Part shown: positions 10,460 to 46,233 of the stretch, piece after piece
Numbering within the stretch: the first letter of the stretch is position 1
Layout of the letters: every line of letters starts with the position of its first letter
From: a bacterium
GTDB lineage: Bacteria > Patescibacteriota > Saccharimonadia > CAILAD01 > JADZBC01
NCBI GenBank assembly: GCA_020852295.1
Contig: JADZBC010000016.1
Span: 294 to 64,293 of the forward strand
Reading direction: 5' to 3'
DNA: 64,000 nt
The notes under the pieces: generated by a model
Database searches by the model: none
Told to the model about the DNA's origin: nothing
Seen by the model: only the letters and a program-made list of their open reading frames with translations
Translations under genes and position numbers: made by a program

Positions 10460-10588
10460 TATGCTGATTTCGCCTCCAGAATAATTGTGTCCATTGGCTT
10501 CAATTTAACCACCAATTAACTCGATTATAAACCTAATGCCATGACAAATCTAGCACCGAACACATTTTTTTACATGCAGTTTTGAGCG

Positions 10589-12672: not shown

Positions 12673-12686
12673 AGCTATATTGTATA

Positions 12687-15560: not shown

Positions 15561-15562
15561 GC

Positions 15563-16946: not shown

Positions 16947-16994
16947 ACAACCATATTGTACAGGACATCAGGATTTTTCTGATAAAATCGAATC

Positions 16995-31665: not shown

Positions 31666-31792
31666 CAGGTTAACCTTGAGCGTTATCTATTAGGACTATT
31701 ATAAGATGCCCCTTATGGTTACGCAAGCTCAAATAGCAACGACTTTTTTCCACATACCGCAAGAGTTTTCCACTGGTATTTTTTATAGTTAT

Positions 31793-31810
31793 ATGACAAT
31801 ATATTGTCAT
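31793..31810. promoter_or_regulatory. Perfect 18-bp palindrome (NrdR-box-like) overlapping the nrdR start codon
   Basis: ATGACAATATATTGTCAT is exactly self-complementary; its AT-rich core ACAATATATTGT resembles NrdR-box operators. It sits in the divergent region between nrdR and the giant-protein operon. Confidence 0.45.
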
Positions 31811-32252
31811 GAAATGCGCATATTGTGGTTCAACAAAAACCGAGGTATTCAACTCTCGATCAACGCGTAGTGGCACGCAGATTTGGCGACGTCGTCGCTG
31901 TCAGGATTGTGGCGAGGTAATGACCAGCTACGAACGTCCTGACCTCTCTGCAGTCCTCTACATCGATACAGGGGCCAAAAAGAAGACGCGCTATAGCCGG
32001 GCAAAACTCCTCATCAGCCTGGTGCGTGCCTTCGAGCAGAGCAACAAGCTCACTGACCTAGAAAACATTATCGACACAATTGAGCAGCGGCTTATGGCAC
32101 TCAAGACAGAGTATGTCACTTCGGCCGAACTGACCGAGGTAGTCTTGCGCACGATCAAGCCAGTCGATACCGCTGCATTCGTCAAATACCTTGCTGCATA
32201 CGGTGATATTGCCTCCTCGCGTGAACTCAACAAACTCATGAAAAAATACTAG
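31809..32252 (+). CDS. nrdR: Transcriptional repressor NrdR (zinc ribbon plus ATP-cone)
   Basis: MKCAYCGSTKTEVFNSRSTRSGTQIWRRRRCQDCGEVMTSYER is the canonical NrdR N-terminus; 147 aa. Confidence 0.85.
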   Translation: MKCAYCGSTKTEVFNSRSTRSGTQIWRRRRCQDCGEVMTSYERPDLSAVLYIDTGAKKKTRYSRAKLLISLVRAFEQSNKLTDLENIIDTIEQRLMALKTEYVTSAELTEVVLRTIKPVDTAAFVKYLAAYGDIASSRELNKLMKKY

Positions 32253-32314
32253 CTCCAGATTAGGAGCTAGTATTTTTTACATAGTTGTTATGCTAAAGCA
32301 TGAAGATCAAGTTG

Positions 32315-32974
32315 CTATTCGCCAGCCTTTTCTTGCTCACCCTCAGCGGCCTCTTCACTGCCCTCTTCGGCAGGAATGTTTTCCACGATCTCTTCATCGA
32401 GTGCTTCGAGCTCTTCGTCACTGCGTGGCGGCTCGACTCGCGCAACCAACTCTTCGGCATCAGTCAGTAGCTTCACATCAGCCGGTAGTTTGACGTCAGC
32501 CACGGTAATTGTCTTCTCGAAGTCATCTAGTACTGAGATATCAACCTCAATCTGTTGAGGAAGATTGCCAGGAAGAGCCTCAATCTCGAGCGCCTCCAGG
32601 TTAGTTATAAGGCTACCATCCTGCTGAAAGACAGCGGTCGATTCACCGACGAAATGCAGTGGTACTTCTGTACGGATCACCTCATCCATCTTCACCAGAT
32701 AGATATCAGCGTGGATTGGCTCTGATTTGACGACATCAAAAGCAACGTCCTGTATAAGCACATTGTACTTCTTACCATCAAGCGAAAGCTCGAGGATACT
32801 ACTGTAGCCTGCCTGATTCAAGATACGGCCAAACTCCTTGGCATCAAGCGTAATGTTCTTGTTCTCGGCGCCACGGCCATACAGCACCGCAGGCACCTTA
32901 CCTGATTCGCGCAGTTTTTTTACAGCCTTTCCTGCTTCTTGACGCAGGTCAGCCGACAAAATGATCTTATCCAT
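32315..32974 (-). CDS. rplY: 50S ribosomal protein L25, general stress protein Ctc form
   Basis: N-terminal LSADLRQEAGKAVKKLRESGKVPAVLYGRG matches L25, with a two-domain Ctc-type body and an acidic C-terminal tail. Confidence 0.8.
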   Translation of the reverse strand: MDKIILSADLRQEAGKAVKKLRESGKVPAVLYGRGAENKNITLDAKEFGRILNQAGYSSILELSLDGKKYNVLIQDVAFDVVKSEPIHADIYLVKMDEVIRTEVPLHFVGESTAVFQQDGSLITNLEALEIEALPGNLPQQIEVDISVLDDFEKTITVADVKLPADVKLLTDAEELVARVEPPRSDEELEALDEEIVENIPAEEGSEEAAEGEQEKAGE

Positions 32975-32990
32975 TTTTTCCTAAATCTTA

Positions 32991-33338
32991 TTATTTGGTC
33001 TGTTTGTGCTTGGTAAGCTTCAGGTGGAACTCAGCGATTTCAGTCGAAGAAATCGCGCCCTTAGCCTTAAACTTAGCTTTTTCGCGTGGCTTGAGGTCAG
33101 TTTTCTTATGGTACGACTTTGGTTTAGCTGGTTCAGCTTCAACCTGTTCGGCACCACTCAACATGACCGTGGCCAGTACTGGCAGAGAACACTCGTGACA
33201 GCTTAACTGCATAAAGCAGCTAGAATCTACCTTACCCAAGAACTTAATATCATCAAAGTGATAGCTCGCGCCACAGGAGGGACATTTATAAAAAATCTGC
33301 AGATTACGAATAAGTTCTTGAAAGTTTTTTCTGTTCAA
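32991..33338 (-). CDS. Hypothetical zinc-ribbon protein with a lysine-rich C-terminus
   Basis: CPSCG...CHEC pairs of cysteines and a basic tail. Confidence 0.4.
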   Translation of the reverse strand: MNRKNFQELIRNLQIFYKCPSCGASYHFDDIKFLGKVDSSCFMQLSCHECSLPVLATVMLSGAEQVEAEPAKPKSYHKKTDLKPREKAKFKAKGAISSTEIAEFHLKLTKHKQTK

Positions 33339-33411
33339 TGACGTACTCCCTCTTAGCTACGAGAATACCACTTTTCTCCTGTAAGGTCAATCTAAACTGC
33401 GGTGGTCTAGC

Positions 33412-34473
33412 CTACGATGAAGTGTTTTTTCGGCGACGTAGCAGCGTCAGGAAAACAACAGAAGTCACCATCAGGAAGATGAGAGTCGCAATGGCGATCA
33501 CCTTCTGTCCGGTATTGGCGATGAGTGCAATCAGCCCGAAGGTTATCGAGATCGCATATATCAGAAGGACCGCTTGGCGCTGGCTCAAGCCAACATCGAT
33601 CAAAAGATGATGGAAATGCCCTCGATCGGCACTAAATGGCGAACGGCCGGTTGCAATACGGCGAATAAACGCCCATATTGCGTCAAAAATCGGCACACCA
33701 AGCACTAAAGCGGCAGTAGCAAGCTTGGCACCCGAGAAAATTGCCAAAATACCAAGCGTCATACCGAGAAAATAAGCACCACTATCGCCATTGAAGATCT
33801 TTGCTGGGTAAAAGTTGTATACAAGGTAACCCAGAGAGGCGCCCGTGAGCGTAATTGCGATGAGTGCTGTGTCGGGTTGGTTGACCGAGGGGCTAATCGC
33901 CAGGAGAAAGACTATAAATGCCGCGATAGCCGACACGCCTCCAGATAGGCCATCGAGACCATCAAGTAGGTTGATCGTATTGGTGATGCCGACCAGCCAG
34001 ATGATCGACAATACTGTGGCGATAAGCCCCGCCCCAACCTGAAATGGACCGATCGCCAGGGGCGGAACTTTGCTCGACAAAGAAATAGCCTGCCCGAAAG
34101 GATTTGTAATCGTGTCGATACTAATGCCGAAGCCAACCACCGCTACTGCAGCCGCCAGGATCTGAAAACACAACTTAATCCACGGACTCAAGCCTTTGAC
34201 GTCATCATACAGGCCGACCAGTAGTACAATCGTGCCCGCCAGCAACAGCCCTATGAAGTTCTGCGTGATCTTAGGAAGGAGTACTAAACAAACCAGTACG
34301 AAGCTCAGATAGATCGCCACGCCCCCAGCGCGAGGCACGGCATGCTTGTGTATCTTGCGCTCTTCCCGTCCAGCGTGATCAATCGCTCCAAATTGCGTGG
34401 CATAACGGATGACGATTGGCACTAAGATCGCAGCTACGATCAGGCTCAAGACGAGAGCAGCCCAGTACATCAT
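33412..34473 (-). CDS. Polyprenyl-phosphate N-acetylhexosamine-1-phosphate transferase (GT4 family, WecA/MraY-like)
   Basis: LYDDVKGL, NLLDGLDGLSGG and IFNGDSGAYFLG motifs; 10-11 TM helices. Confidence 0.7.
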   Translation of the reverse strand: MMYWAALVLSLIVAAILVPIVIRYATQFGAIDHAGREERKIHKHAVPRAGGVAIYLSFVLVCLVLLPKITQNFIGLLLAGTIVLLVGLYDDVKGLSPWIKLCFQILAAAVAVVGFGISIDTITNPFGQAISLSSKVPPLAIGPFQVGAGLIATVLSIIWLVGITNTINLLDGLDGLSGGVSAIAAFIVFLLAISPSVNQPDTALIAITLTGASLGYLVYNFYPAKIFNGDSGAYFLGMTLGILAIFSGAKLATAALVLGVPIFDAIWAFIRRIATGRSPFSADRGHFHHLLIDVGLSQRQAVLLIYAISITFGLIALIANTGQKVIAIATLIFLMVTSVVFLTLLRRRKNTSS

Positions 34474-36176
34474 TTCTTCACAGCCTTATCTGTTACACGA
34501 AACTCTAGATACTTGCCAAACATCAGGCGTGTCTGTGCATTGATGGCGGCTAGGGCGCCGAAGCATAGGGTTGTGACCGGTAGTAGTACCCACTGTGCCA
34601 CCATAAAGATGGTACGGGACTTCTTATAGCGGGCCGGGCGTGGCGGCAGCAAGATGATACTGATCCAGATAGTCACGAACATTCCCAGTGCGGCAAGAGT
34701 TAGGATCCGGCTCGCAATCACCGGCAATTGATGTGCCACCACCAAGGTTGCGAAGTCTTGGTTGACCAGCAGCGGTATCCAAGCTACGAAGGTCAGAATG
34801 ATTGGTGCGGTTGCCCAGCTGTAGTGCCCCTCAAATAGTCGACCGATCGAAACCAGCTTCTTACCGAGCGGAATGCGGTTGTTTTTGAGCGAGTGCTTGA
34901 CCACAAAAGCAAAGTCCGAGGCTCCCCAGGCCCAGCGCTGAAGCTGCTTAAACTGCGCCACGATGGTTTTGCGGTAGTTGTCCGATAGTACGGCATCTTG
35001 ATAGATCGGGATAAAGAGCGGCTCAACCGTATGATCGCCATCGTAGGCAAAAAATGTCCGCCAGTACTGGTGGCCGTCTTCGACGATCGTGTGGACAGAC
35101 CAGAAATCCGTGTCAATCAGGGTAGCGAGACCCTGTGCGTGAGCGGCAAAGTTACGCAAGCGATGTGGTCGTACCATCTCAATCATGGTCCAGAAGGAGT
35201 TACCAGTAGCGATTACTCGCATCGGCGCCGGACAATCCCAGATATTGTTAAAAAACATCGGGATCGGCTGATATGACTTGTGGCGCCGGTTTGGATCGGT
35301 GGCGTAGGCGTAGGTTAGGTAGCTAAAGTACTGGCGATCGACCCGATGGTCGGAGTCTAAAGTCGTCACAATAACGTGCTCTGGATCGATCTGCTTCTCC
35401 TTTACGTAGGTCAGGAAATGCTTACCAGCATAGGTAATGTTGGGACCCTTCCCTGTTTTGAGCTCACCCGGCAGGTTGGCCGGATGCTTGATAGTAATAA
35501 AATCGTAAAAAGTCGTACCAAACTCTTTCTTGAGCACTTCGGCATTTTTCTCTGTTTGCTCGCCACCCCGCTCTTCATAGGCCAGGATCACGATCATTTT
35601 CTTCAGATCATAGTCAGCCTCAGTCAGTGCCTGAATTGATGGACGAAGAATATCGATAGACTCATTGTAGGTAGCAACAATCACCGCCTGATAGATATCT
35701 TTGGGGCGCAACAGAGTCTGTGAGCGCTGATCTAGCAGCTGCAGCTCGGCGACATACTGCTGTAGGTCACGAGCTTTCTGATAGTGCTGTAGCCTTTGAC
35801 GGTCAAAACTAAACCGCTGCATAAAGCCAATCCGTTCGCTACGCTCATAGCGACGCTGATATTTCTCAAGCGCTTCATCAAGCTGATTGAGCTCAGAGAG
35901 TCGATCCGACCAATTCATTTTCATCGCCGCCTTGAAGTTGCGGTAGGCCTTGATCTGATACCAGCTCATGCGAAATGATTTCATCATCCAAAGCAAATCA
36001 AAGGCGATAATGAAATACGCAATCACGATCGGGCTGAACAGGCTCAGGATAATTGCCGCGACGATAGTTCCCCAGCTCATAAATCCTGGAAAAATCTCGA
36101 GCACTCGATAGAACCAGCGGCTATCCACGAAGCCTAGTGCCGTATAGTCGATCTTTTTTAGTCTAAACCGCGCCAT
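34470..36176 (-). CDS. Processive family-2 glycosyltransferase (cellulose/chitin/hyaluronan-synthase-like) with flanking TM helices
   Basis: QLQRWAWG (QxxRW) motif, TTLDSDH (D,D,D) motif, an N-terminal TM pair and a C-terminal TM cluster; overlaps the GT4 gene. Confidence 0.65.
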   Translation of the reverse strand: MARFRLKKIDYTALGFVDSRWFYRVLEIFPGFMSWGTIVAAIILSLFSPIVIAYFIIAFDLLWMMKSFRMSWYQIKAYRNFKAAMKMNWSDRLSELNQLDEALEKYQRRYERSERIGFMQRFSFDRQRLQHYQKARDLQQYVAELQLLDQRSQTLLRPKDIYQAVIVATYNESIDILRPSIQALTEADYDLKKMIVILAYEERGGEQTEKNAEVLKKEFGTTFYDFITIKHPANLPGELKTGKGPNITYAGKHFLTYVKEKQIDPEHVIVTTLDSDHRVDRQYFSYLTYAYATDPNRRHKSYQPIPMFFNNIWDCPAPMRVIATGNSFWTMIEMVRPHRLRNFAAHAQGLATLIDTDFWSVHTIVEDGHQYWRTFFAYDGDHTVEPLFIPIYQDAVLSDNYRKTIVAQFKQLQRWAWGASDFAFVVKHSLKNNRIPLGKKLVSIGRLFEGHYSWATAPIILTFVAWIPLLVNQDFATLVVAHQLPVIASRILTLAALGMFVTIWISIILLPPRPARYKKSRTIFMVAQWVLLPVTTLCFGALAAINAQTRLMFGKYLEFRVTDKAVKK

Positions 36177-36546
36177 AATTCACCGATGTAAAACCAAAAA
36201 GAATTGCCGTAGACAAAATTGCCACCAGCAAGCTAATAAATAGGAGAAATATCGCCATGAGCCGGCTCTTCTTGTAGAGGACGATGCCCAGTGCCAGGTT
36301 AGTCAAGAACGTTGCCAGAGAGATTATCACCAATTCATACAGTTCGTACCACTTTCCAAGCTCGAAATTCTGCAAACTCGTATAGTGAACCGGGATAAGT
36401 AATTCGGTTTGCCGGATATGTGTGATTGACCAGATAAACTCGAAGGCAATAACTAAAGCCGAGAAAAACAAAAAGCCCACAATCCAACCATCTTGGAAAA
36501 AGGCGTGACTCTTAATACCTTCGCGTGCTTTTTTCAGCCTACTCAT
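36163..36546 (-). CDS. Small polytopic membrane protein co-transcribed with the GT2 synthase
   Basis: 127 aa with 3-4 hydrophobic helices; overlaps the GT2 start. Confidence 0.45.
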   Translation of the reverse strand: MSRLKKAREGIKSHAFFQDGWIVGFLFFSALVIAFEFIWSITHIRQTELLIPVHYTSLQNFELGKWYELYELVIISLATFLTNLALGIVLYKKSRLMAIFLLFISLLVAILSTAILFGFTSVNYGAV

Positions 36547-36567
36547 GTGAGCTTATTATACTACTAA

Positions 36568-36643
36568 TGGAGCCACCTAGCGGGATCGAACCGCTGACCT
36601 ACGCTTTACGAAAGCGCCGCTCTACCAGCTGAGCTAAGGTGGC
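36568..36643 (-). tRNA. tRNA-Thr (anticodon CGT), discriminator U73, CCA encoded
   Basis: Cloverleaf GCCACCT/AGGTGGC, anticodon loop TTCGTAA, T-loop TTCGATC; 76 nt. Confidence 0.8.
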
Positions 36644-36671
36644 ATGGTTATTTCACTCAGGTCGCAAAATA

Positions 36672-36745
36672 TGGAGCGGGTAGCGGGAATCGAACCCGCA
36701 TCTCAACCTTGGGAAGGTCGCGTTCTACCACTAAACTATACCCGC
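36672..36745 (-). tRNA. tRNA-Gly (anticodon CCC), CCA encoded
   Basis: Cloverleaf GCGGGTA/TACCCGC, anticodon loop TTCCCAA, T-loop TTCGATT; 74 nt. Confidence 0.8.
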
Positions 36746-37181
36746 AGATACAAATTACTGGATTATTTTAGCATATTGGGCTGCCACACCGCTGATGTGG
36801 CGCAAAATACCCTATTTTATCCCCTTTGGACGCAAGAAAAACGTTTTGCCAAATTTTTTTGGCTGCTTTTTGCGTAAGTCCGTTGGGTCAAGATTTTTAA
36901 TTGCCATCATGTGTCTATCTGTCGAGATCCGACTCACCGCAACTTGCTTCTCGTCACGAGCGCTGCTATTGTTCATTGATTGCATAACTTTTGTACCCAA
37001 TTACAATTTATTGTTCAAAGCCATTTATCTAGTGTTCAAAAAGCTAATGTTTTGCTTTAAAATAAGCGTTTTTGTGTATTTTTAGTTATTTTACACCTGT
37101 AGAGTGCATAATTACAGCGTAACTACCTTGTGAATTGATCTATAGGGCCATTTCTGCTACCATATTTGGGTTATATGACGC

Positions 37182-37258
37182 GGGCTCGTGGTGTAGAGGC
37201 CTAACATGCCTCCCTGTCACGGAGGAGATCGCCGGTTCGAATCCGGTCGAGCCCGCCA
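37182..37258 (+). tRNA. tRNA-Asp (anticodon GTC), CCA encoded
   Basis: Cloverleaf GGGCTCG/CGAGCCC, anticodon stem CCTCC/GGAGG, loop CTGTCAC, T-loop TTCGAAT; 77 nt. Confidence 0.75.
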
Positions 37259-37264
37259 GAAAAG

Positions 37265-37293
37265 ACACTGAGCTAGTCTCGGTGTTTTTTCTT
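37265..37293 (+). terminator. Rho-independent terminator after tRNA-Asp
   Basis: Hairpin ACACTGAG-CTAGT-CTCGGTGT followed by TTTTT. Confidence 0.5.
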
Positions 37294-37464
37294 TGAAGCG
37301 TTCAAATTCCTGACAATAAAACTAAGAAGCGACCTCCCAGGTGATTTGGAGAAACTCCACCTTTGTAGTTCAGATACTTTACTATTGACTTTTGTACAAT
37401 ACATGTTAATATGTATGACTAGCTGGCAATCCGGCCTGCTAATGAGAGAATAGAGGTACCTCAC

Positions 37465-37838
37465 ATGACCACCCCAACCCTCACCCTGAACCTGGAGCGC
37501 GACCCGCTCATGCGAGAGGGCGTCACCTTCAGGGAGACCGTCCCGGCAGGGATCACCGAAGTCCGCATCGGGCGTGAAGCTCCGCTGCCGGGCGAGGTCG
37601 GTGACAACGTGCAGTTCTACTACATCCCTTGGGGCACCGTCTCCGCGGTGCACCTGATCATCCGACTAGAGGCCGATCGCTGGGTCCTCTACGACCCACG
37701 ATCGACCAATGGAACCTTCTGGCTGGAGGGCTCCGTTCCACCCCGCAAGCTGGAGAACGGCGTCCCCTACGTCCTGGAGGACGGTGCGCGTACCGGGTGG
37801 CCACCGGAGGGATCCTCAACATCGCCCTCGGCGAGTAG
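37465..37838 (+). CDS. FHA-domain protein in a high-GC segment, probably frameshifted (the frame-1 ORF runs to 38124; the FHA C-terminus continues in another frame to a stop at 37838)
   Basis: FHA signature RIGREAP...DNVQF...VSAVHLIIRLEADRWVLYDPRSTNGTFW. About 64% GC against a 48-50% background. After ...PYVLEDGA the FHA-like ending ...ATGGILNIALGE* continues in a different frame (the same frame as the 69-aa ORF 37629..37838). The remaining frame-1 tail is S/P/R-rich and antisense to the neighbouring gene. Confidence 0.5.
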
Positions 37839-37915
37839 GAAGGCACCTCTCCCCCGCCTCCGCGGGTTCATTATTCGTTTCACGACGAATGAAGAGCCCA
37901 AGGAGGCTTCTTCAT

Positions 37916-39034
37916 TTATTTCGAGTCAGCCTTCACCTCAACACTTATCAGATGAACGTAGCCCTTCCAGTTGCCCTCATCGCGATAGTACGAGATCGAG
38001 AGAGTATTGTCTTTGCTTAATTCAGGGTGCAAATAGGCGGCATATATGCCACTTGGCGCCGTGTAGGCCGTCACAGGGGTCGACCAGGGCCCTTCTGGGC
38101 GCTGCGCAGTACGCAGCTCTATAATTTTCGAGAATGCTGGTACCTTGACCGACACATAGGACTTGAGCGACTCACTGTACATCACCGAGAAGCCAGATGT
38201 AGAGCCAGGCACGACAGCCTTGGACTGAGCAAGGTCGGCAACCCAAGCACTACCCGTCCAAAAACTATACTTGTCCCGATTGAGGATATCCCCCGTCCTA
38301 ACTCGCGCTACCCGACAATATGACTCCAGGCTGCCAGCCACAATGTCGCAGCCATACAGGTAGGTGTAACCATCACGCTGTACATAGGCATGCTCAAACC
38401 TAGTTCCCTTCCCCGTAAAAAGATTGTCAACCAATCGATCTGCCTTAGTCTCGCCCGCTCGCACGCGCGCAACACCAGTGCCAATACCCTCGTAATTGAG
38501 ATAGCCTGGGTGCACCTTGAGCCGATCATAGAAAACAAGTGCGCTGTCTTTTGACTCGGGCACCATGAATCCAGGCCAGATGGCGTAGCGCTCATCTGGT
38601 TTACCGCTCGCCCGGTTGTAAGCGAGCTCCTCGGCATTAAAGTCTATAAACTGATACGGAACCCCGTTCTTGTCGAGCGGCTCTGAGAGCTGCGTAGGGT
38701 TGGCATATGTGCTGTAAGCGGCGGTGTTAGAGCGTCCATTACTCTTATCATCTACCGACTTACGAGCAAAGAGCGTATCGCCAAACATCCAGAGGATTTT
38801 GTCACCCAGCGGAACGCTGGCGCCGCCGTCTCGAAGTATGTAGCCCGTACTCGGATTGGTAAGCTCACCCACCTCGGCAACGTTGACGACAGATAGCTGC
38901 GGGGGCTTAGGGGTGATAAAAGCCGAGACAAACGAATAGGCCCCCGCCAAAACGACGAGCAGAAACAATCCACCAAGTGCAACCTGCTTACGAAGCGACT
39001 GCTTATTCATGCGTGCAGTATAGCGCATCTTCAC
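37916..39034 (-). CDS. Membrane-anchored DUF4185-like (sialidase/beta-propeller-like) protein
   Basis: N-terminal TM anchor, then the KILWMFGDT motif characteristic of DUF4185, a family found mainly in Actinobacteria; about 53% GC. Confidence 0.5.
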   Translation of the reverse strand: MKMRYTARMNKQSLRKQVALGGLFLLVVLAGAYSFVSAFITPKPPQLSVVNVAEVGELTNPSTGYILRDGGASVPLGDKILWMFGDTLFARKSVDDKSNGRSNTAAYSTYANPTQLSEPLDKNGVPYQFIDFNAEELAYNRASGKPDERYAIWPGFMVPESKDSALVFYDRLKVHPGYLNYEGIGTGVARVRAGETKADRLVDNLFTGKGTRFEHAYVQRDGYTYLYGCDIVAGSLESYCRVARVRTGDILNRDKYSFWTGSAWVADLAQSKAVVPGSTSGFSVMYSESLKSYVSVKVPAFSKIIELRTAQRPEGPWSTPVTAYTAPSGIYAAYLHPELSKDNTLSISYYRDEGNWKGYVHLISVEVKADSK

Positions 39035-39110
39035 TGATTATCCTATTACAAACATTGACAATTAACCATAATAATGTTAATATAATAGCCCATCGATCAA
39101 GGAGGTGCGC

Positions 39111-39371
39111 GTGCAAATCACGCTTCCCCAGATGTTCATCGCGCTCGGCGCCTGCATGGTGTTGTGCCTGATCGGCCTGCTGCTCGTGCACTACGAGCTG
39201 TTGCGCCGGCGGCGCGCCAAGAGCGATCCACTAGTGCGCGGCATTCGTGTCAGCAAGGGCGAGGCTGCCTACGTGCAGACTGTTGAAAACACCCTGCTCG
39301 GCATCGAGTACCTGGTCCACCTCTTCAACGAGGCACCCTGGATGAAGGCCCGCAAGAACAAGCGTCGATGA
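39111..39371 (+). CDS. Small high-GC membrane protein (GTG start, strong SD AAGGAGG)
   Basis: AAGGAGG lies 8 nt upstream of the GTG at 39111; one TM helix (FIALGACMVLCLIGLLLV) and a basic tail; about 62% GC. Confidence 0.45.
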   Translation: MQITLPQMFIALGACMVLCLIGLLLVHYELLRRRRAKSDPLVRGIRVSKGEAAYVQTVENTLLGIEYLVHLFNEAPWMKARKNKRR

Positions 39372-39440
39372 ACCCCCGGATCCCCGAAAGGAGCAATCCA
39401 CAGGGTGATCCGGGCACCCACAGCAATCATTACAAAAAAA

Positions 39441-39463
39441 GAGCCCCCGGGGGCTCTTTTTTT
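39441..39463. terminator. Bidirectional rho-independent terminator
   Basis: GAGCCCCCGGGGGCTC palindrome flanked by an A-run upstream and a T-run downstream; lies between convergent genes. Confidence 0.6.
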
Positions 39464-39466
39464 GTA

Positions 39467-40543
39467 CTAGATCTTGATATATTCGGCTATCTTAGCCTTG
39501 CTACGCTGATCCTTGAGCCAACTATCGAGGTCGGTCGCCTTGATAAGTATCTGCGAGATACGGACCTGATCATCTTTCTTTTCGGTAACCTTAATGATGT
39601 GGTAACCGTACTGGGTCTTGATAATGTCGCTGTATTTACCAACTTCCAGCTTAAAGGCAGCGTCTTCGAGCTCAGGAACTCCGAGCTGACCACGGCCCAC
39701 AAAACCGAGATCACCACCGTTACTCGCGTAGCCATCAGTTGAAGTCTTTTTGGCAAGTTCGGCAAAGTCCGCACCAGACCCAAGCTGCTTGAGGACATCA
39801 TCGGCCTGCTTCTTGGCAGTCGCGTTGAGCTTGTCATCTTTCACGATCTTGTCGCCAAGCTTTTGCTGCAAGATTCCATCGCGAATCTTGTCTTTGAAGT
39901 CAGCTACCGTCCAGCCATAAAGTTTGTCTAGAGTTGTTTTTACTTTGTCTGGACCACCTGCTTCTTTGACGATGTTGTTGTACTGATCTTCGATCTCTTT
40001 TTGAGAAACAGTAATACTATACTTACGTGCGCCCTGGGCGTAGATGATGTTGTTTTCGAGACGCGTCAGGATCTCCTTCTTCATTTTGGCAAGCTGTTCT
40101 TTGCCTTCTTTTGAGTTGAGGTCAGTGCCCTGGTACTGCAAGTATTTTTTGATTGAGTTTACTTCAAAAAGATACTGTCGATAGGTTGCGACGTTCCACA
40201 GTACGCTACCGTTGACGCTCACTACTGGATACGGCACGATCATGGCAGCGATCTCAACGGCTCGGCTCTCGCTCTTATTCTTGTAAATGAGTACACCAAA
40301 AGTCACGAGCGTTACTACCAGCGCCGCCAATGCCCCGACACCGATAATCACTGCAAGCTTTTTGTTTGGTTCACGCTTCACTCCAAGCTTTTTGAGCCGC
40401 TCTGAAAAACCCGGCTTTGTAGGGGTCTCAACTTTAGCAGCAGCTGGCTTTGTAGTCTTAGCTGGAGTCGATTTTGTAGTAGCTTTGACTGGCTTCTTGG
40501 CTGAGGTTGATTTTGGTTTTTTACTATCTGATGCGGTGGCCAT
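39467..40543 (-). CDS. Membrane-anchored parvulin-type peptidyl-prolyl isomerase (PrsA/SurA-like foldase)
   Basis: Lys/Ala/Thr-rich N-terminus, TM anchor and a C-terminal PpiC domain ([44 protein letters not shown]). Confidence 0.7.
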
Positions 40544-40578
40544 ATTTCTTCCTCTTAGATTTCATGCTCTATCATATA

Positions 40579-41136
40579 CTACCTGGTTGGGTGTGTCGAA
40601 TCAAAAGCCTGAACGGCATCAAGAATCTTCTGCTGAAACTTGGCTGGTCGGTGTACAAAGTCCATATTGAATCCGCCACTTCCAGAAAGCGTTTCAACCA
40701 CAACATCGCCATAACCGAAAGCGGAAGCCTGAAAGCCGTCGATTTTATAGTTAACGCTCTGAATATTGTTGAGTGCAAGGTCAGACACTGACCTTCGGAA
40801 GAACCCGCGCTGGGTAATAACGGTCAGCTTTGTTGAAGTCAGCAGATAAATGCTATAGTACCAACCGACCCACTCGCGCAGCCAGTACCACGCCAAAACA
40901 GCGAAAGCCACAAACATCCAGTTGTAAGCCATACCGAGCCAGTCCGCTCCAGTATTCATAGCAAATGCCCACGGAATCATACCTACTAGTATAATGAGCA
41001 TGCCATGTATTAAGGGCCAGCGCATGACCACCGGAAAACGACGAACGACGGCAATTACGTCTTCGTCACTGTCTTGTTGATGTTGTCGCTTTGTTACGTC
41101 GCGCTTAACTGGTCGATCCATAACTACATTGTACAA
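40579..41136 (-). CDS. Bacterial PH-domain (bPH_2/YdbT-like) membrane protein
   Basis: Two TM helices followed by a PH-like domain of about 80 aa, the typical DUF304 layout. Confidence 0.5.
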   Translation of the reverse strand: MYNVVMDRPVKRDVTKRQHQQDSDEDVIAVVRRFPVVMRWPLIHGMLIILVGMIPWAFAMNTGADWLGMAYNWMFVAFAVLAWYWLREWVGWYYSIYLLTSTKLTVITQRGFFRRSVSDLALNNIQSVNYKIDGFQASAFGYGDVVVETLSGSGGFNMDFVHRPAKFQQKILDAVQAFDSTHPTR

Positions 41137-41211
41137 TAATTCAGATCCTAAAGCGGAAACCCGACCGTCGTTGGTCGGGCTGGTGGCAATATGAAACCGC
41201 CATGTCCGCTT

Positions 41212-41688
41212 TTACAGGTGCCACTCGTAGTAGATCTTGTCTCCCTTCTGCTCGATGACGACCCGGTCCGAAGAGCGCGGCAGCTCTCGGATATCTGCCT
41301 GACACAGCCGTACAGACTCACGAGCCATCCGACTCGTGTAACTGTAGACACGTTCCGCAGAACGACCTCTGGTATAAAGCGTGATGCGCTTCTGCGCCAG
41401 ATAGTCGAGCAGCTGCTTGATGGCCGCCGTCTTGCTCGTTGCCAGTATCCAGAAGTACTCTTCGCGCCCTGAGTTGATGGCAAGCAAGTAGTACTGCTCG
41501 GTTCGGACCCGAGTTGGGTGCCGCGACCGCGCAGCCTGGACTTCCTCGGGCTCTGGCACGAGCTCGAGCCACGGCTCGTCAAAGTCGAGATCGCTGACGT
41601 CTTCGTCGCACGCAGGGCAGATCGTCGTCTCGGGAGAGATCGACGCCCCACAGTTTAGACAACGGTACATAGGACGGATCACCTCCAC
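41212..41688 (-). CDS. Hypothetical zinc-ribbon protein in a high-GC segment beside tRNA-Arg
   Basis: CLNCG...CPAC N-terminal zinc ribbon; about 57% GC. Preferred over the overlapping R/S-rich alternative frame (41148..41651). Confidence 0.45.
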   Translation of the reverse strand: MEVIRPMYRCLNCGASISPETTICPACDEDVSDLDFDEPWLELVPEPEEVQAARSRHPTRVRTEQYYLLAINSGREEYFWILATSKTAAIKQLLDYLAQKRITLYTRGRSAERVYSYTSRMARESVRLCQADIRELPRSSDRVVIEQKGDKIYYEWHL

Positions 41689-41781
41689 TACACTTGTAAA
41701 GCTACGGACGCCCCAAAACTACAATCATAAGTAATTTATGTCAAGCTGATATCTTACACTTTGGTATAATAGTCTTGCCCT

Positions 41782-41857
41782 ACCCCGGTAGCTCAGTGGA
41801 TAGAGCGTCTCCGTCCTAAGGAGAGCGTCGGGGGTTCGATTCCCTCCCGGGGTACCA
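41782..41857 (+). tRNA. tRNA-Arg (anticodon CCT), CCA encoded
   Basis: Cloverleaf ACCCCGG/CCGGGGT, anticodon stem TCTCC/GGAGA, loop GTCCTAA, T-loop TTCGATT; 76 nt. Confidence 0.8.
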
Positions 41858-41861
41858 AAAA

Positions 41862-41890
41862 ACACTCCATTATTAGAGTGTTTTTCTTTT
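41862..41890. terminator. Bidirectional terminator between tRNA-Arg and ndk
   Basis: Hairpin ACACTC-CATTATTA-GAGTGT with an A-run upstream and a TTTTCTTTTT run downstream. Confidence 0.55.
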
Positions 41891-41899
41891 TCGGACGAT

Positions 41900-42427
41900 C
41901 TATCCTTCCGAGCGGGGCTGGGTGTAGGCTTCGTGGAGCGTAGTATACTCAAAGAGTTCTGACTCAGCAAACCAGTGAGCGATTTCCTGCTTGGCTTCAT
42001 CGGCATCACCAGAGGCGTGAATAAGGTTTGGAATGCCAATCTTTTGGGCATCACCGTGCGCATAGCTCATGTGGGCATAGTCACCACGAATCGTGCCTGG
42101 TTCAGCTGATTTTGGCTCGGTACCACCAACCATCTTACGTACCAGGCTGGCCGCTTCAATGCCCTCGAGCACCATTGCCAGCACTGGTCCGCGATTCATA
42201 AACTTGAGCGTCGCATCAAACACTTCCTCACCGCGACGCGACACCATCTTGCCGATCGTCTCGTAGTGATGATAGTAGTCATCACGACTCGGCTGGATCA
42301 TTTTGGCGCCGACTATCTTCAGACCAACTTTTTCAAATCGGTTTACAATCTCACCAACGATGCCGCGCTGCAAAGCATCTGGTTTGAGGATAATTAGTGT
42401 CTGTTCAACTGTCTCTGGCTTACTCAT
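41900..42427 (-). CDS. ndk: Nucleoside diphosphate kinase
   Basis: TLIILKPDALQRGIVGEIVNRFEKVGLKIVGAKM and the active-site NLIHASGD motif. Confidence 0.85.
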   Translation of the reverse strand: MSKPETVEQTLIILKPDALQRGIVGEIVNRFEKVGLKIVGAKMIQPSRDDYYHHYETIGKMVSRRGEEVFDATLKFMNRGPVLAMVLEGIEAASLVRKMVGGTEPKSAEPGTIRGDYAHMSYAHGDAQKIGIPNLIHASGDADEAKQEIAHWFAESELFEYTTLHEAYTQPRSEG

Positions 42428-42436
42428 ATCTTCTCC

Positions 42437-43717
42437 TTATTGGGTAATCAATTTTTCGTACTTGGCCTTAGCTGAATCATCAAACGGGCCAATCATCGCC
42501 AAACGCAGATTATCCTTCGCAAGATAATTCTGAGCGACGCGCGCCACATCTGCAGCAGTAACGGCATCTATTTTACGAAGCATTTGCTCGAGCGTCCAGA
42601 TCTTTCCGGTCAAAATAAGATCCGTCCCCATGTCATCCGCAACCGAAAAGTTATTTTCGAGGCCCATAATCATCCGGCCCTTTACCTGCTCGACTGCTTT
42701 TTGTAGCTCGGCACTTGGCACTGGCTCGTCAATGATTTTCTTGAGCTCCTCGCCGATCGCCACAAGCGCCTGCTCGGCCTTGTCTTTATTGACCCCAGCA
42801 TAGATCTCAAACTTACCACTATCGACAAAACCATTGCCGGTCGAGTAAATGGTGTAAGCCAAACCTTTGCGCTCACGGACATTGAGAAATAGTCGTGAGC
42901 TCATACCCCCGCCCAAAATGGCCGACATAACACGCATCGGTGCTTCGTCCTCACTCTCGAGTATCGCGCCTCGAGCACAAACCACCATGTGCACCTGGTT
43001 GGTGTCCTGGTTCACAATGTTTGACCGCTGGTCGGATATTCCACCTTTGATGTGTTCGTAGCCACGACTCGCTTTGGTCTGTAGCTCGCCCAATTTAGCT
43101 TGGGCGGCAGCCACTACATCAGCGTGCTCAACATTGCCCGCCACCGAGACAACCATGTTATCGACCGTATAGAGCGACTTGTAGTAGTCAGCGATGGTCG
43201 AGCGCTGCATGCCGGTAATGATCTCAGCTGTACCAATCACATTGGTGCGCAGCGTGTCCTCAGGCCAAAGCAGATCGCCTACCAGATCAAACACAAAGCG
43301 TGCCGGATCGTCTTTATACACATTCATCTCTTCGAGGATCACGCCTCGTTCGCGCTCGATCTCATCGGGGTCAAACAGTGGATCGGTCAGGATGTCACTG
43401 AGGATATCAAAGGCCAATGTAAAATGCTGCTTGGGTAGCTTGATGTAGTAGGCCGTGTGATCTTCCGTCGTATAGGCGTTCATCAGCCCGCCAACGCTAT
43501 CGACCTCTTCGGCAATGATTTTGGCCGAGGGTCGCTTGGTTGTGCCCTTGAAGAGCAAGTGCTCGAGAAAATGCGCCGCGCCATACTCGGTGGTCATATC
43601 TTCGTAGCGACCGCCCGCCCCTACATAAAATCCAATCGTAACCGAGTCGTTATCTTCCATGCGTCGTGTTACTACGCGCAATCCGTTACTAAGCTTTTCA
43701 ATCTGATGTTTGGTCAT
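42437..43717 (-). CDS. M16-family (insulinase/pitrilysin-like) zinc peptidase
   Basis: Inverted zinc motif HFLEHLLFKGT (HxxEH) and the downstream conserved Glu region. Confidence 0.8.
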   Translation of the reverse strand: MTKHQIEKLSNGLRVVTRRMEDNDSVTIGFYVGAGGRYEDMTTEYGAAHFLEHLLFKGTTKRPSAKIIAEEVDSVGGLMNAYTTEDHTAYYIKLPKQHFTLAFDILSDILTDPLFDPDEIERERGVILEEMNVYKDDPARFVFDLVGDLLWPEDTLRTNVIGTAEIITGMQRSTIADYYKSLYTVDNMVVSVAGNVEHADVVAAAQAKLGELQTKASRGYEHIKGGISDQRSNIVNQDTNQVHMVVCARGAILESEDEAPMRVMSAILGGGMSSRLFLNVRERKGLAYTIYSTGNGFVDSGKFEIYAGVNKDKAEQALVAIGEELKKIIDEPVPSAELQKAVEQVKGRMIMGLENNFSVADDMGTDLILTGKIWTLEQMLRKIDAVTAADVARVAQNYLAKDNLRLAMIGPFDDSAKAKYEKLITQ

Positions 43718-44331
43718 TTTGTATCCTTTTTACTGTTCATTTTTCTGCCGACGAACCTGACGAGGAAAAGTACTACTGCCAATATTACCAAATAGTCGAC
43801 GTAGTGGAGGTATTCATAATAATCACGCCAGCTCTCGCCGAGTGCGTAGCCAAGGCTCACGAAAACCGCCGACCAGACCAGCGAACCAAGAAATGTATCC
43901 CGTAAAAATACGCGGACATCCATCCCAAACGTGCCGGCCGGGAAACTAATAAAGGTACGGATCACTGGGGTGAGACGCGATATAAAGATAGCCTTACTGC
44001 CCCGTTTCTTAAACCACGCCTCGGCTTTCTCGTAGTCATGGGCCGATATCAGCAGGTACTTGCCATATTTCTTCACCAGCGGACCACCACCATACTTACC
44101 GATAGCATAAGCCAGTCCCGCACCAACAGTCTGCGCAAATGCCCCTAGAAGGATCACAATCCAGAAGTTAAACTTCCCAACCCGTGCCTGCGAGCCAGCG
44201 AGAGCCAGGACTGCCTCTGACGGGATCGGCACACCGCAGTTATCGACAATCAGTATGATCGTAATGCCCAAGTAGCCGATACGATCGATAAAACCAATGG
44301 CAAATTCAAGTAGACTGGCGGTCAAGTTCAA
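43714..44331 (-). CDS. DedA/SNARE-associated (TVP38) family membrane protein
   Basis: NCGVPIPSEAVLALAG DedA signature; overlaps the M16 gene. Confidence 0.7.
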   Translation of the reverse strand: MNLTASLLEFAIGFIDRIGYLGITIILIVDNCGVPIPSEAVLALAGSQARVGKFNFWIVILLGAFAQTVGAGLAYAIGKYGGGPLVKKYGKYLLISAHDYEKAEAWFKKRGSKAIFISRLTPVIRTFISFPAGTFGMDVRVFLRDTFLGSLVWSAVFVSLGYALGESWRDYYEYLHYVDYLVILAVVLFLVRFVGRKMNSKKDTK

Positions 44332-44358
44332 CGGCGCGCTTCCTGGTTAAAATGCTTG

Positions 44359-46233
44359 TTATAGTTTAGCAGTTTTGTTGTGGTGGTGGATAGCCACCAT
44401 CAGAATACTCAGATCGGCCGGCGTGATCCCCTGCACCAGCTCCGCCTGTGCGAGCGAGCTTGGGCGAACCTCCATGAGTCGCTCGCGCGCCTCATTGCGC
44501 AGGCCCTTAACCGTCTTGTAGTCAAGTTCGGCGGGGATTTTGTGAGTGCGGCGCTGCTGCAGCTTTTGCGCATCTCGCTGCTGCTTTGCAAAGTAACCAC
44601 TGTATTTGACCTCATTCTCAACACAACTCGCGATGTCGCTTGGCAAATGCTCGAGACCATATGCTTGGCAGGTAGCCGCAAAATCATGTTCCGGACGTGT
44701 GAGGTACTGATAAGCCGTTACCTTGCGACCATCGATCGTCTTACTACTCGTGTGAAGGAGTGCAATGTAGTCATCAATGGCGCGCTGCTTGGTTATTACC
44801 CGTTCGTAGGCGAGCCGCCCCAGCAAACCAAGCTTATAGCCATATTTACTGAGCCGTAGATCGGCATTGTCATTGCGCAGCAGCAAGCGAAACTCGGCAC
44901 GCGAAGTAAACATGCGATATGGCTCAACGTGGATTTTGGTTACCAAATCTTCAATTAATACACCGATATAACTTTCGCTTCGCTCGAGCGTGAATGGCTT
45001 TTTGCCGAGTGCCTTGCGAGCTGCATTTATACCTGATATGAGACCCTGGGCAGCTGCCTCTTCGTAGCCAGTTGTACCATTGAGTTGGCCCGCCAAAAAC
45101 AGATTTTGAACAACTTTTGTTTCCAATGTAAGACCGAGTTGATGTGGCATAAAAAAGTCATACACCACGGCATAGCCCGGTGCTAAAAACTTGGCATTTT
45201 CCAATCCCGGAATGGTGCGAATGATTTTTTCTTGTAGCTCAGCCGGAAACGCCAACGAACCACCCTGTATATACATACGCTCGCCATCAGGCCCGTCAGC
45301 TCGCCCCTCTGGCTCAATAAAGATCGGATGACGGCTCTTCTCCGGAAAATTAGCTACCTTGCGATCAAGTGATGGGCAGCTCCGTGGCGCGCGCTCGGTG
45401 ATGAGTCCTGAAAAAATCGGTGACTTTTTGAGGTTATCGAGAATAAGCTGGTGCGTCTTCTCGTTGGTATAGGTCAGATAGCAAGGTTCTTGCTCGCTGA
45501 GTGACATCAACTCTGTATCGGGATATGAGAAGCTCACTGCCCCACCACTCCCGGATGCCACTTCCATCTGATCATAATCAATGCTATCGCGAGCGATCCG
45601 TGGTGGTGTCCCGGTTTTTAACCGGCCCGACTTGAGTCCAAGCGCCAAGAGAGACTCGGTCAGGCCCTCACTTGCCTTCTCGTCCATTCGTCCACCCTTT
45701 TTGACCACCTCATCGCCGATGATAATCTCCCCATTGAGAAAAGTGCCACCACAGACCACGACAGCCTTGGTGTCAATCTCGCCTGTTTCAGCTGTTTTGA
45801 CGGCTTCTACGACGCCATTGGGCGCCACCACTGCCTTGACCTCATCCTGAAGCAGATCAAGCCCATCGGTGGTCATCAGCACCTCGAGCATATGCTCGTT
45901 GTAGAGCGTCTTATCGAGCTGGGCACGGTAGGCACGAACTGCCGGCCCTTTGCTGGTATTGAGCTGCTTGATCTGTATCGCGCTCTTGTCGGCCACCTCG
46001 GCCATAATGCCGCCAAGGGCACCTATTTCACGCACCAAGTGCCCCTTGCCAGGCCCACCGATGCTTGGATTACATGGCAAAGTCGCCACTTTCTGGAGAT
46101 TGGTGGTAATTAACAGGGTCTGGGCGCCAAGCTTGGCGGCGGCTACAGCGGCTTCACAGCCTGCATGACCAGCACCAACGACGATAACATCGTACATTTT
46201 ATCTGTTTGCATGACACTCATTATACTAGCCAC
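44359..46233 (-). CDS. mnmG: tRNA uridine-5-carboxymethylaminomethyl modification enzyme
   Basis: FAD-binding [24 protein letters not shown] and conserved MnmG core and C-terminal helical domain. Confidence 0.85.

Follow-up and report, generated by a model that had tools for sequence, protein, structure and literature searches.

Small stand-alone FHA proteins of Actinobacteria are of the GarA/OdhI type, and tRNA-linked islands are tyrosine-integrase elements located at tRNA 3′ ends. The GH183 family includes EndoMA1 from Microbacterium arabinogalactanolyticum, Rv3707c/AraH2, DgGH4185 from Dysgonomonas gadei, an enzyme from Myxococcus xanthus, and a homolog from the saccharibacterium Ca. Mycosynbacter amalyticus. 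The biochemistry of this family and its presence in M. amalyticus have been reported (PMC10115798, PMC10509167), and the homolog from M. amalyticus proved insoluble when studied (PMC10115798). Catalysis relies on an Asp nucleophile and an Asp acid/base, namely D33/D51 in EndoMA1 and D39/D56 in Rv3707c (PMC10115798, PMC10509167), and the species bearing DUF4185 are mostly Actinobacteria (PMC10509167).

Here, we discuss a 2212-bp interval (37259–39470) located 3′ of tRNA-Asp in a stretch of 64,000 nucleotides (the window), in which an FHA-domain gene, a DUF4185 gene, and a gene for a small membrane protein are found. An earlier note had suspected a Saccharibacteria-like genome, which agrees with the lineage (Ca. 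Saccharibacteria), and had described the interval as one island. We found that it is an ordinary accessory slot rather than one imported island; probably, it is a composite slot in the Saccharibacteria chromosome, holding three independent transcription units of different ages. The tRNA-adjacent cassette, found in this species only, combines a terminator of its own and an AT-rich promoter with a stand-alone, GC-rich FHA gene; the remainder is taken up by an older pair pre-dating the species split, i.e., a GH183 homolog and a divergently transcribed small membrane protein.

The interval is the GC peak of the window (54.5% vs. 49.8%): only 9 of the 1236 sliding windows equaled it, each of them overlapping the interval. 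The GC rise after tRNA-Asp was confirmed, with the FHA and small genes as the GC maxima, and a GC content of ≥60% in 374-bp windows was reached only in these two and in a third small gene (~41.2–41.7 kb). Against a reference GC3 of 0.53 ± 0.067 across 56 window ORFs, the FHA ORF (37465–37838; 65.5% GC, GC3 0.81) and the small gene (39105–39371; 61.8% GC, GC3 0.83) were outliers by more than 4 sd, whereas the DUF4185 gene (37916–39034; 53.3% GC, GC3 0.59) was less than 1 sd above the mean. Hence, the expected atypical composition and codon usage held for the first two genes but not for DUF4185, which lies within the background, and base composition is atypical over parts of the interval rather than over the whole. 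In addition, the GC-rich tract ends exactly at ORF boundaries: the leader of FHA (37259–37464) and the divergent intergenic region upstream of the small gene (39035–39104) contain 39.8% and 28.6% GC, respectively, resembling native intergenic DNA, and both carry near-consensus sigma-70-like promoters according to a promoter scan.

The left conserved anchor of the slot is tRNA-Asp(gtc) (37182–37258, + strand; ARAGORN, Rfam tRNA 61.9 bits), which is 94.9% identical to its counterpart at the sister-species locus, L004. Homology ends at 37261, and species-specific DNA starts 3 nt past the CCA. An intrinsic-terminator-like hairpin (8 bp, 5-nt loop) with a T-run, recognized from the sequence (37265–37295, + strand), is likewise species-specific, with a gap at the matching L004 point in the alignment. 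The right anchor of the exchangeable cassette is a terminator (37851–37916, + strand) made of a long, conserved hairpin and a U-rich tail, which abuts the DUF4185 stop codon. This 66-nt element is 92.4% identical to L004 6480–6545, as against 64–74% for the flanking coding DNA, and its RNA fold is stable (−41.6 kcal/mol, z = −6.3). It occurs once in the window and was seen only in the window's species and the sister species. Farther downstream, the bidirectional terminator described in the earlier note proved real: a perfect 18+18-nt palindrome with A and T runs on its flanks (39431–39466; inverted repeat I2, 100% complementary) separates the convergent small gene and the gene for a PpiC/SurA-like peptidyl-prolyl isomerase (39467–40543, − strand; Pfam Rotamase families). 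PpiC is a backbone gene that forms the right edge of the slot and adjoins it across Saccharibacteria, the backbone order being tRNA-Arg, bPH, PpiC, [slot], tRNA-Asp, tRNA-Gly/Thr, GT568.

Behind a sigma-70-like promoter (TTGACT-16 nt-TG-TAATAT; 37385–37412, + strand; 9/12 matches, extended −10 TG), the FHA-domain gene occupies 37465–37838 on the + strand. Its family assignment holds (Pfam FHA, E = 7e-7; PF00498 at 30–32 bits, cutoff 20.7), and the sequence retains the phosphothreonine-binding motifs G36-R37, S60/H63, and N82-G83. However, the reading frame is not intact. At ~37786, the GC3 phase jumps from the third codon position to the second, a 1-nt frameshift is located near 37789–37791, and the two final strands, like the natural stop (37836–38), are in another frame. 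The ATG frame stays open until 38124, running through the terminator into DUF4185 antisense, whereas the repaired gene has ~124 codons and a tail, YRVATGGIL, that aligns with the C-termini of FHA homologs. The frameshift sequence is identical in L001, L002, and L003, which are the three other assemblies covering the position, and the FHA sequence of L001 is identical although nearby blocks differ by 3–5%. As a side observation, the sole gene called over this ORF in the public annotation of L020 is a 126-aa antisense ORF, and the annotation of L001 has no gene there; at least one public gene call in the region, that of L020, is wrong.

Similar to GarA/OdhI-type proteins, the FHA protein has a single FHA domain of ~120–140 aa with G-R, S-x-x-H, and N-G motifs, but the gene here is frameshifted and an orphan by sequence. 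In a set of 1.84 billion representative proteins, no relative fell below E = 9e-8, and the best named, weak match was an Actinomycetota protein, P0050 (E = 1.3e-5). Solved FHA proteins showed no significant similarity, the best PDB match being the FHA domain of M. tuberculosis Rv1747 (E = 0.15); PHROG, IMG/VR, and INPHARED phage records gave no match either. No Ser/Thr kinase or phosphatase gene was detected among the ORFs scanned at 34.5–41.7 kb. The cassette is missing from the sister species and from ~90 other loci, and it is the only species-specific part of the interval, the other two genes being retained in the sister species. At the sister locus, the FHA position is held by an unrelated 141-aa gene (GC3 0.70). 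Because the 141-aa family also occupies the slot of the more distant L014, FHA is taken as the derived state. Most likely, the FHA gene is what is left of foreign DNA in decay; for both FHA and the small gene, a foreign origin is suggested by composition and patchy distribution, and the searches yielded no donor homolog. The cassette may have replaced unrelated genes via recombination between the tRNA-Asp and 66-nt hairpin anchors.

The DUF4185 gene (37916–39034, − strand) encodes a putative GH183-type endo-alpha-D-arabinanase of 372 aa, consistent with the earlier domain assignment (Pfam DUF4185, E = 4e-28). An N-terminal transmembrane helix (residues 11–39) precedes a beta-rich, glycoside-hydrolase-type catalytic domain. 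The PF13810 match (98.9 bits, cutoff 39.5) covers profile positions 154–294 only, leaving the N-terminal catalytic half unaligned by HMMER, whereas a family profile search matched the PDB endo-alpha-D-arabinanase 8ic1/8hhv (EndoMA1; E = 5e-25). The AlphaFold model (pLDDT 93.8) retrieved EndoMA1 8ic1 as the top Foldseek match (E = 2e-18, TM 0.68 over 343 columns) and 8an0 (M. tuberculosis AraH2) at rank 6 (E = 2e-7). Across 28 homologs, D69 is invariant and D86 is at least 90% conserved; the spacing of 17 residues equals that of D39/D56 in Rv3707c, and this segment gave no residue-level alignment to a solved enzyme. At the level of the predicted fold, the protein is thus a membrane-anchored GH183-type endo-D-arabinanase homolog, encoded, as for M. 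amalyticus and Myxococcus, by an epibiont or predator. It differs from EndoMA1 in being only ~20% identical, in carrying an N-terminal membrane anchor instead of a C-terminal CBM-like domain, and in having Gly, in this subfamily, at the position of E243, the third essential acidic residue of EndoMA1. The putative enzyme may act extracellularly on D-arabinan of host arabinogalactan or lipoarabinomannan, which would imply a Mycobacteriales-type host. Outside the sister species, the placeable relatives are an Anaeromyxobacteraceae cluster (P0010) plus P0005 and P0011, the latter two in non-CPR gene contexts; they belong to high-GC non-CPR genomes, two of which measured 70–73% GC. The only named source among these nearest relatives is Anaeromyxobacteraceae, not Actinobacteria, and the solved actinobacterial GH183 enzymes are at most ~20% identical to this protein.

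The genes for the small membrane protein (86 aa; 39111–39371, + strand; mechanical ORF start 39105) and DUF4185 are divergently transcribed in both species; the small gene has a sigma-70-like promoter (TTGACA-17 nt-TG-TAATAT; 39055–39083, + strand; 10/12 matches in the promoter scan). The reported AAGGAGG SD is present at 39099–39105, with the GTG start at 39111, and a public 86-aa gene call (P0060) matches the gene at 99% identity. In this protein, a single hydrophobic helix at the N-terminus is followed by a conserved VHYELLRRRR...NEAPW domain and then a basic tail. Searches of Pfam, PHROG, PADLOC, and the IMG/VR and INPHARED phage records gave no match, and homologs were found only in its own and the sister species. 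Synonymous divergence (dS) between the two species is saturated in backbone genes, yet GC3 of the small gene is high in both (0.83/0.74), as is that of a Zn-ribbon gene at 41212–41688 (0.72/0.60). Since high GC3 persists despite saturated dS, GC content by itself says little about recent transfer; a high GC content may be a feature that particular genes maintain rather than a sign that they were transferred.

Comparison with the sister species separates the three genes by age. L004 carries the DUF4185 ortholog in the same position and orientation (59% aa identity) and the small-gene ortholog (50%), and this synteny indicates that both predate the species split; the interval is not present or absent as a unit, since L004 keeps these two genes without FHA. 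Beyond the L004 hairpin lie a WYL gene and then a 317-aa EPSP-synthase-like gene, neither of which occurs in the window, and none of FHA, DUF4185, and the small gene was found in the slots of more distant relatives. Across 50 loci, the gap 3′ of tRNA-Asp ranged from 32 to 7703 bp (median 784) and the 5′ gap had a median of 113 bp, although some of these measurements take in undetected PpiC or backbone genes (SOD, VKOR, MFS, Mur ligase, malic enzyme). The excess on the 3′ side is independent of tRNA-Asp orientation. In distant Saccharibacteria, the slot contains ordinary genes whose GC is normal (SOD, VKOR, MFS transporters, Mur ligase, malic enzyme), and simple rearrangement, not integration, may account for some of the variability. 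In the window's clade, slot cargo consists almost entirely of singletons, and the tRNA-Asp-proximal genes are GC3-rich in all five genomes (0.65–0.81 vs. a local background of ~0.42–0.50).

The locus resembles tRNA-linked islands in that variable DNA adjoins the 3′ end of the tRNA directly, all genes but DUF4185 are atypical in composition, content varies between related genomes, and relatives carry tRNA 3′-end copies. Conversely, the three genes are of unequal age, two of them being fixed at the site in the sister species, and the window lacks both an integrase and a flanking direct repeat. The last 45 nt of tRNA-Asp, aligned to 37259–39520 on both strands, scored 7.5–8.5 at best, below the shuffle mean of 9.4 (max 15), contrary to the partial repeat proposed near 39.4 kb, and a repeat search found no direct repeat of the tRNA-Asp 3′ end in the window. 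Pfam detected no integrase or recombinase family among the interval ORFs, of which the three with coding signal are FHA, DUF4185, and one without a Pfam match; L004 likewise lacks an integrase and an att repeat. What survives of the integration-site proposal is a slot that is variable phylum-wide and, in several relatives, exact copies of the tRNA-Asp 3′ end a short way downstream of the tRNA.

Phage or integrative elements of Saccharibacteria targeting the tRNA-Asp T loop could have left the tRNA-proximal GC-rich genes as remnants, in which case FHA would have been an accessory gene of a phage, now decayed, that served, e.g., host takeover or anti-defence; we regard this as a tentative possibility. 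It aligns with exact 14–18-nt copies of the tRNA-Asp 3′ end, 83–190 nt downstream (L014, L032/L047, L042, L046, L055, L060, and L101), which in all eight loci begin in the T loop. The same arrangement was seen once at tRNA-Arg, once at tRNA-Val, and at 0 of 125 tRNA-Gly/Thr/Pro genes. It also accords with the L016 slot, which encodes a Tad4 domain (E = 1.7e-12), a weak Phage_endo_I match, and an NYN domain, and with the L004 WYL gene, which matches phrog_3715 (E = 1e-25). However, PHROG has no match for the 141-aa family, FHA, or the small gene, the latter two also have no match in the IMG/VR and INPHARED phage records, the window itself bears no scar, and Pfam found no integrase family among the scanned slot ORFs of L004, L013, L014, and L016, distant slots being judged by eye.

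Alternatively, no transfer need have occurred: native, fast-evolving genes might keep their GC3 through selection or biased gene conversion, with ordinary loss and rearrangement near tRNAs. The persistent GC3 of the small and Zn-ribbon genes, the confinement of high GC to ORFs behind native-looking AT-rich promoters, and the lack of mobility genes in the Pfam-scanned interval and clade slots fit this explanation. Nevertheless, it appears unlikely, as FHA is decaying and missing from the sister and every other sampled locus, clade cargo is almost all singletons, GC3-rich genes cluster tRNA-proximally in all five clade genomes, phage-family genes occur in the slots of two relatives, and several relatives carry tRNA 3′-end copies.

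We give little credence to an undescribed, integrase-less, T-loop-targeting system at the 3′ flank of tRNA-Asp (occasionally tRNA-Arg or tRNA-Val) that repeatedly delivers and exchanges small GC3-rich genes from a GC-rich pool. Its trace in relatives would be a module of ~100–150 nt ending in the exact tRNA 3′-end copy, its pool might be the host, host phages, or Saccharibacteria phages, and both the small gene, with its persistent GC-richness, and the FHA cassette would be among its products.

A single mosaic island passed from a high-GC actinobacterial host to its epibiont is highly improbable: the tRNA-adjacent position, the two GC3-rich ORFs, the weak P0050 and non-significant Rv1747 matches, and the predominance of Actinobacteria among DUF4185-bearing species (PMC10509167) are in its favor, but two genes are syntenic in the sister species, which already largely refutes the island as a unit, DUF4185 is normal in composition, att repeat and integrase are absent from the window, the leaders of both GC-rich ORFs look native, the placeable DUF4185 relatives are non-CPR with one named Anaeromyxobacteraceae, actinobacterial GH183 enzymes are distant, and homolog searches on FHA, the small gene, and DUF4185 identified no donor, an exhaustive search for homologs of FHA and the small gene having turned up none near enough to point to one.

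With the composite accessory slot as the preferred reading, a GC-rich patch beside a tRNA in a CPR genome should not be taken for one recent island of host origin; the patch described here breaks down into genes that differ in age, and GC3-richness outlasts synonymous saturation. The membrane-anchored GH183 homolog is a useful biological lead, as it suggests that the host has a D-arabinan wall of the Mycobacteriales/Corynebacteriales type. It is a candidate for how the epibiont may breach or feed on the host wall, an idea raised before for M. amalyticus.

The interval downstream of tRNA-Asp (37259-39470) is an accessory slot of composite make-up at a tRNA hot spot, with genes of different ages. 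Across the 64-kb window (49.8% GC as a whole), GC peaks in these 2.2 kb, and the rise in GC after tRNA-Asp described in the earlier note was borne out by segment GC, GC3, and this window-wide maximum. tRNA-Asp(gtc) (37182-37258) is followed by a hairpin and a T-run; the segments from 37259 onward are a leader (37259-37464, 39.8% GC), the FHA ORF (37465-37838, 65.5%), the DUF4185 gene (37916-39034, 53.3%), an intergenic segment (39035-39104, 28.6%), the small membrane gene (39105-39371, 61.8%), and a perfect 18+18-nt bidirectional terminator (39431-39466). High GC is restricted to two ORFs, with AT-rich leaders carrying near-consensus promoters upstream: GC3 was 0.81 in FHA and 0.83 in the small gene vs 0.53 ± 0.067 for 56 ORFs, among which DUF4185 (0.59) was no outlier. 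Short windows of at least 60% GC were confined to FHA, the small gene, and a third small gene near 41.2-41.7 kb. Pfam matches support the FHA and DUF4185 identities (E = 7e-7 and 4e-28, respectively), and the AAGGAGG Shine-Dalgarno sequence, GTG start, and bidirectional terminator were all found, the real GTG lying at 39111 and giving 86 aa. An Rfam scan of the region returned tRNAs only.

The earlier note had treated these genes as a single island, but comparison with a sister species (contigs L004, L005, and L006; PpiC and GT568 with ~80% aa identity to the window) did not support this. There, the small gene and DUF4185 (50% and 59% identity, respectively) match the window in position and orientation, whereas the FHA cassette is absent; an unrelated 141-aa gene instead lies between tRNA-Asp and a 66-nt element, and beyond this element come two genes that the window lacks, a WYL gene and an EPSP-synthase-like gene of 317 aa. 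DNA homology between the two species ends 3 nt past the tRNA CCA and restarts at 37851-37916. This stretch is the 66-nt element, which is 92.4% identical between species (vs 64-74% in flanking coding DNA), forms a long hairpin (−41.6 kcal/mol, z = −6.3) with a U-rich tail behind it, and touches the DUF4185 stop codon in the window; it is best read as a terminator hairpin rather than a known RNA family. Because the 141-aa family also occupies the slot of the more distant locus L014 (53% identity), FHA is the derived state in the window's lineage. Recent arrival is upheld for the FHA cassette. FHA, DUF4185, and the small gene were not found at the tRNA-Asp site in any other of ~90 loci. An ATGAAC microhomology, suggested by MAFFT, was considered as mediator of a deletion of the WYL and 317-aa genes and rejected: according to the L004 sequence, the window ATGAAC belongs to the orthologous DUF4185 C-terminus (VH motif).

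The FHA gene is a species-specific, decaying orphan. Its ATG frame (from 37465) is stop-free until 38124, crossing the terminator hairpin and 209 nt antisense to DUF4185. GC3 periodicity jumps by one phase, from 0.66/0.46/0.82 up to 37785 to 0.50/0.94/0.65 in 37786-37838; the shifted frame meets a TAG at 37836-37838, 13 nt ahead of the hairpin, and its tail (YRVATGGILNIALGE) can be aligned to the C-terminal strands of the top two FHA homologs. The frameshift is real and no assembly error, since the same sequence was present in all three other assemblies covering the position, which come from three different samples and include L001, an assembly whose nearby blocks are 3-5% divergent from the window. 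Pfam scores of the repaired and unrepaired proteins (32.4 vs 31.2 bits) are uninformative because the model ends at the frameshift; the question is settled by GC3 phase and the pairwise alignments. The protein carries the canonical G-R, S-x-x-H, and N-G motifs. A word-indexed protein search found no relatives, and exhaustive phmmer against 1.84 billion representatives found the protein itself and generic FHA similarity (E = 9e-8 or weaker). There were likewise no relatives in IMG/VR viral contigs or INPHARED phages, no PHROG or PADLOC match, and no significant match in the PDB. A 126-aa antisense ORF inside FHA (37273-37653, minus strand) is the sole gene called there in the public assembly L020 (3-380), and the L001 annotation has no gene across the FHA region. 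The ORF lacks a codon-phase signal (GC3 0.54) and is on that ground taken to be an annotation artefact stemming from the frameshift in FHA.

We placed the slot in a wider context by searching species-representative genomes with the neighbouring PpiC protein, which gave seven loci (six with the title uncultured Ca. Saccharibacteria, one with Patescibacteria group), and by collecting 80 more metagenome loci with the GT568 protein. The backbone order of tRNA-Arg(cct), bPH protein, PpiC, tRNA-Asp, tRNA-Thr/Gly, GT568, tRNA-Val, and tRNA-Pro is strongly kept; the orientation of tRNA-Asp varies among loci, and variable DNA lies on its 3′ side either way. The 3′ gap ranged from 32 to 7703 bp (median 784 bp, some lengths taking in an undetected PpiC or lineage-backbone gene, e.g., SOD or VKOR) vs a median of 113 bp on the 5′ side, and eight loci repeat 14-18 nt of the tRNA-Asp 3′ end without mismatch 83-190 nt downstream. 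At the level of the phylum, the premise of a hot spot at the tRNA 3′ end thus holds. The window itself contains no partial tRNA-Asp copy, the best alignment falling below the shuffle mean, so the repeat proposed as a check on the island was not recovered. No integrase or recombinase family matched among the ORFs of the interval or the scanned slot ORFs of the closest relatives.

In all five genomes of the window's clade, GC3 is high (0.65-0.81) in the genes nearest tRNA-Asp; phage-like genes occur among these tRNA-proximal ones (Tad4 in L016, phrog_3715/WYL in L004), and the PpiC-proximal slot genes are ordinary, with normal GC. The 7.7-kb slot of the relative L016 (~9518-17222) has GC3-rich genes (0.76-0.81) adjoining tRNA-Asp. 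Among their products are a 240-aa protein bearing a Tad4 domain (type I Thoeris inhibitor; E = 1.7e-12), a protein with an NYN domain, a formyltransferase, and a weak match to Phage_endo_I; genes for an ordinary Mur ligase and malic enzyme follow. Five independent contigs terminate inside tRNA-Asp or within 16 nt of it, at window positions 37208 (L002), 37229 (L003), and 37274 (L020), and, in two further loci, at tRNA-Asp in L029 (1-77) and L064 (2-80). These ends may reflect assembly-graph forks arising from strain-level differences beyond the tRNA.

The tRNA-end copies of relatives lie in a recurrent order: the tRNA's own terminator, a ~100-150-nt module, the 3′-end copy, and a second terminator. 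Such modules follow tRNA-Asp in L014 (13426-13585, minus), L032 (4377-4514, minus), L042 (6061-6193, plus), L046 (6881-7057, plus), L055 (8214-8389, plus), L060 (4822-4917, plus), and L101 (4418-4607, minus; no cargo behind it), tRNA-Arg in L031 (5457-5532, minus), and tRNA-Val in L098 (13020-13096, minus). They contain inverted and direct copies of the same tRNA's T-arm 5′ half and the motifs GGTTCG-N3-5-AGCRAAG, CGAGCR, and GCGCT; the end copy is an exact 14-19 nt of the same tRNA's 3′ end, starts in the T loop, and co-varies with its tRNA (L042). Their frequency was 7/56 at tRNA-Asp, 1/41 at tRNA-Arg, 1/53 at tRNA-Val, and 0/125 at tRNA-Gly/Thr/Pro. The modules match no Rfam family, and RNAalifold found no convincing shared structure among those of the relatives (−1.3 kcal/mol). 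They could be att scars, non-autonomous integrative mini-elements, or small RNAs mimicking the tRNA end. No module was found in the window.

The 86-aa product of the small gene has one N-terminal hydrophobic helix and a conserved domain (VHYELLRRRR...NEAPW). Its homologs were limited to its own species and the sister ortholog found by synteny, with no viral, Pfam, PHROG, or PADLOC match. In both species it is transcribed divergently from DUF4185, a hint that the two may be functionally linked. Its GC3 is high in the window (39111-39371, 0.83; background 0.53) and in L004 (3908-4171, 0.74; background ~0.45). A third GC-rich small gene, outside the interval and adjoining tRNA-Arg(cct), encodes a 158-aa zinc-ribbon protein (41212-41688, minus strand; 58.9% GC, GC3 0.72); its sister copy is syntenic and ~30% identical (GC3 0.60), and between strains it is 97% identical vs 100% for its neighbours. 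NG86 dS between the window and L004 was undefined or >3, i.e., saturated, for GT568, PpiC, bPH, mem127, and DUF4185, so that a donor signature from before the split should have decayed. The GC3-richness of the small gene and the zinc-ribbon gene is therefore maintained, neutral amelioration being no explanation, and GC is weaker evidence of recent transfer here.

Strain-level comparison of window positions 28000-45700 with L001 showed mosaic identity, with 100% blocks alternating with 95-97% blocks, the pattern expected from homologous recombination within a population. The near-100% identity of the interval was considered as a recent sweep and rejected: the identical block (~37.2 to 41.2 kb) also spans backbone genes, and there are several mosaic blocks of this kind. 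Two tandem giant genes (22951-27312 and 27316-31665, minus strand; 1453 and 1449 aa) are hypervariable from strain to strain, identity to L001 being 61-86% over ~29.2-33.2 kb vs 95-100% across most of the locus. The L001 counterpart has DUF2341, fn3, and Pur_ac_phosph_N matches, and these genes probably encode surface proteins under diversifying pressure.

The actinobacterial donor suggested in the earlier note was not supported. The best named weak match of FHA is an Actinomycetota FHA protein (E = 1.3e-5); Actinomycetota have FHA domains in abundance, so this match does not count as evidence for a donor. For DUF4185, all relatives other than the syntenic sister ortholog were at most 49% identical. 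In a neighbour-joining tree (without branch support), the window and sister proteins adjoin a clade holding P0010 (cluster member named Anaeromyxobacteraceae, locus of 69.6% GC), P0005 (contig of 72.6% GC), P0011, and others, P0005 and P0011 having non-CPR gene neighbourhoods; P0032, a homolog that NCBI names as Saccharibacteria, falls elsewhere. Judging from these neighbours and the syntenic ortholog, DUF4185, if transferred, moved before the two species split, and the partner looks myxobacterial rather than actinobacterial.

A profile of 28 DUF4185 homologs matched the solved endo-alpha-D-arabinanase EndoMA1 (E = 5e-25). In the confident AlphaFold model (pLDDT 93.8), an N-terminal helix (residues 11-39) precedes a beta-rich domain; EndoMA1 was the best structural match of the model (E = 2e-18, TM 0.68) and M. 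tuberculosis AraH2 the sixth. D69 is invariant and D86 nearly invariant among the 28 homologs, and their spacing of 17 equals that of the catalytic Asp pair of Rv3707c (PMC10115798), whereas the third essential acidic residue of EndoMA1 (PMC10509167) aligns with Gly in this subfamily. The GH183/DUF4185 family cleaves D-arabinan of arabinogalactan and lipoarabinomannan, and it has already been noted in Myxococcus, actinophage lysis cassettes, and the Saccharibacterium M. amalyticus (PMC10115798, PMC10509167). All parts of the interval fall within known kinds: a variable region next to a tRNA, an epibiont's GH183 homolog, and an orphan gene in decay. Of these, the putative GH183 enzyme is the most useful lead, pointing to a host whose cell wall contains arabinan.
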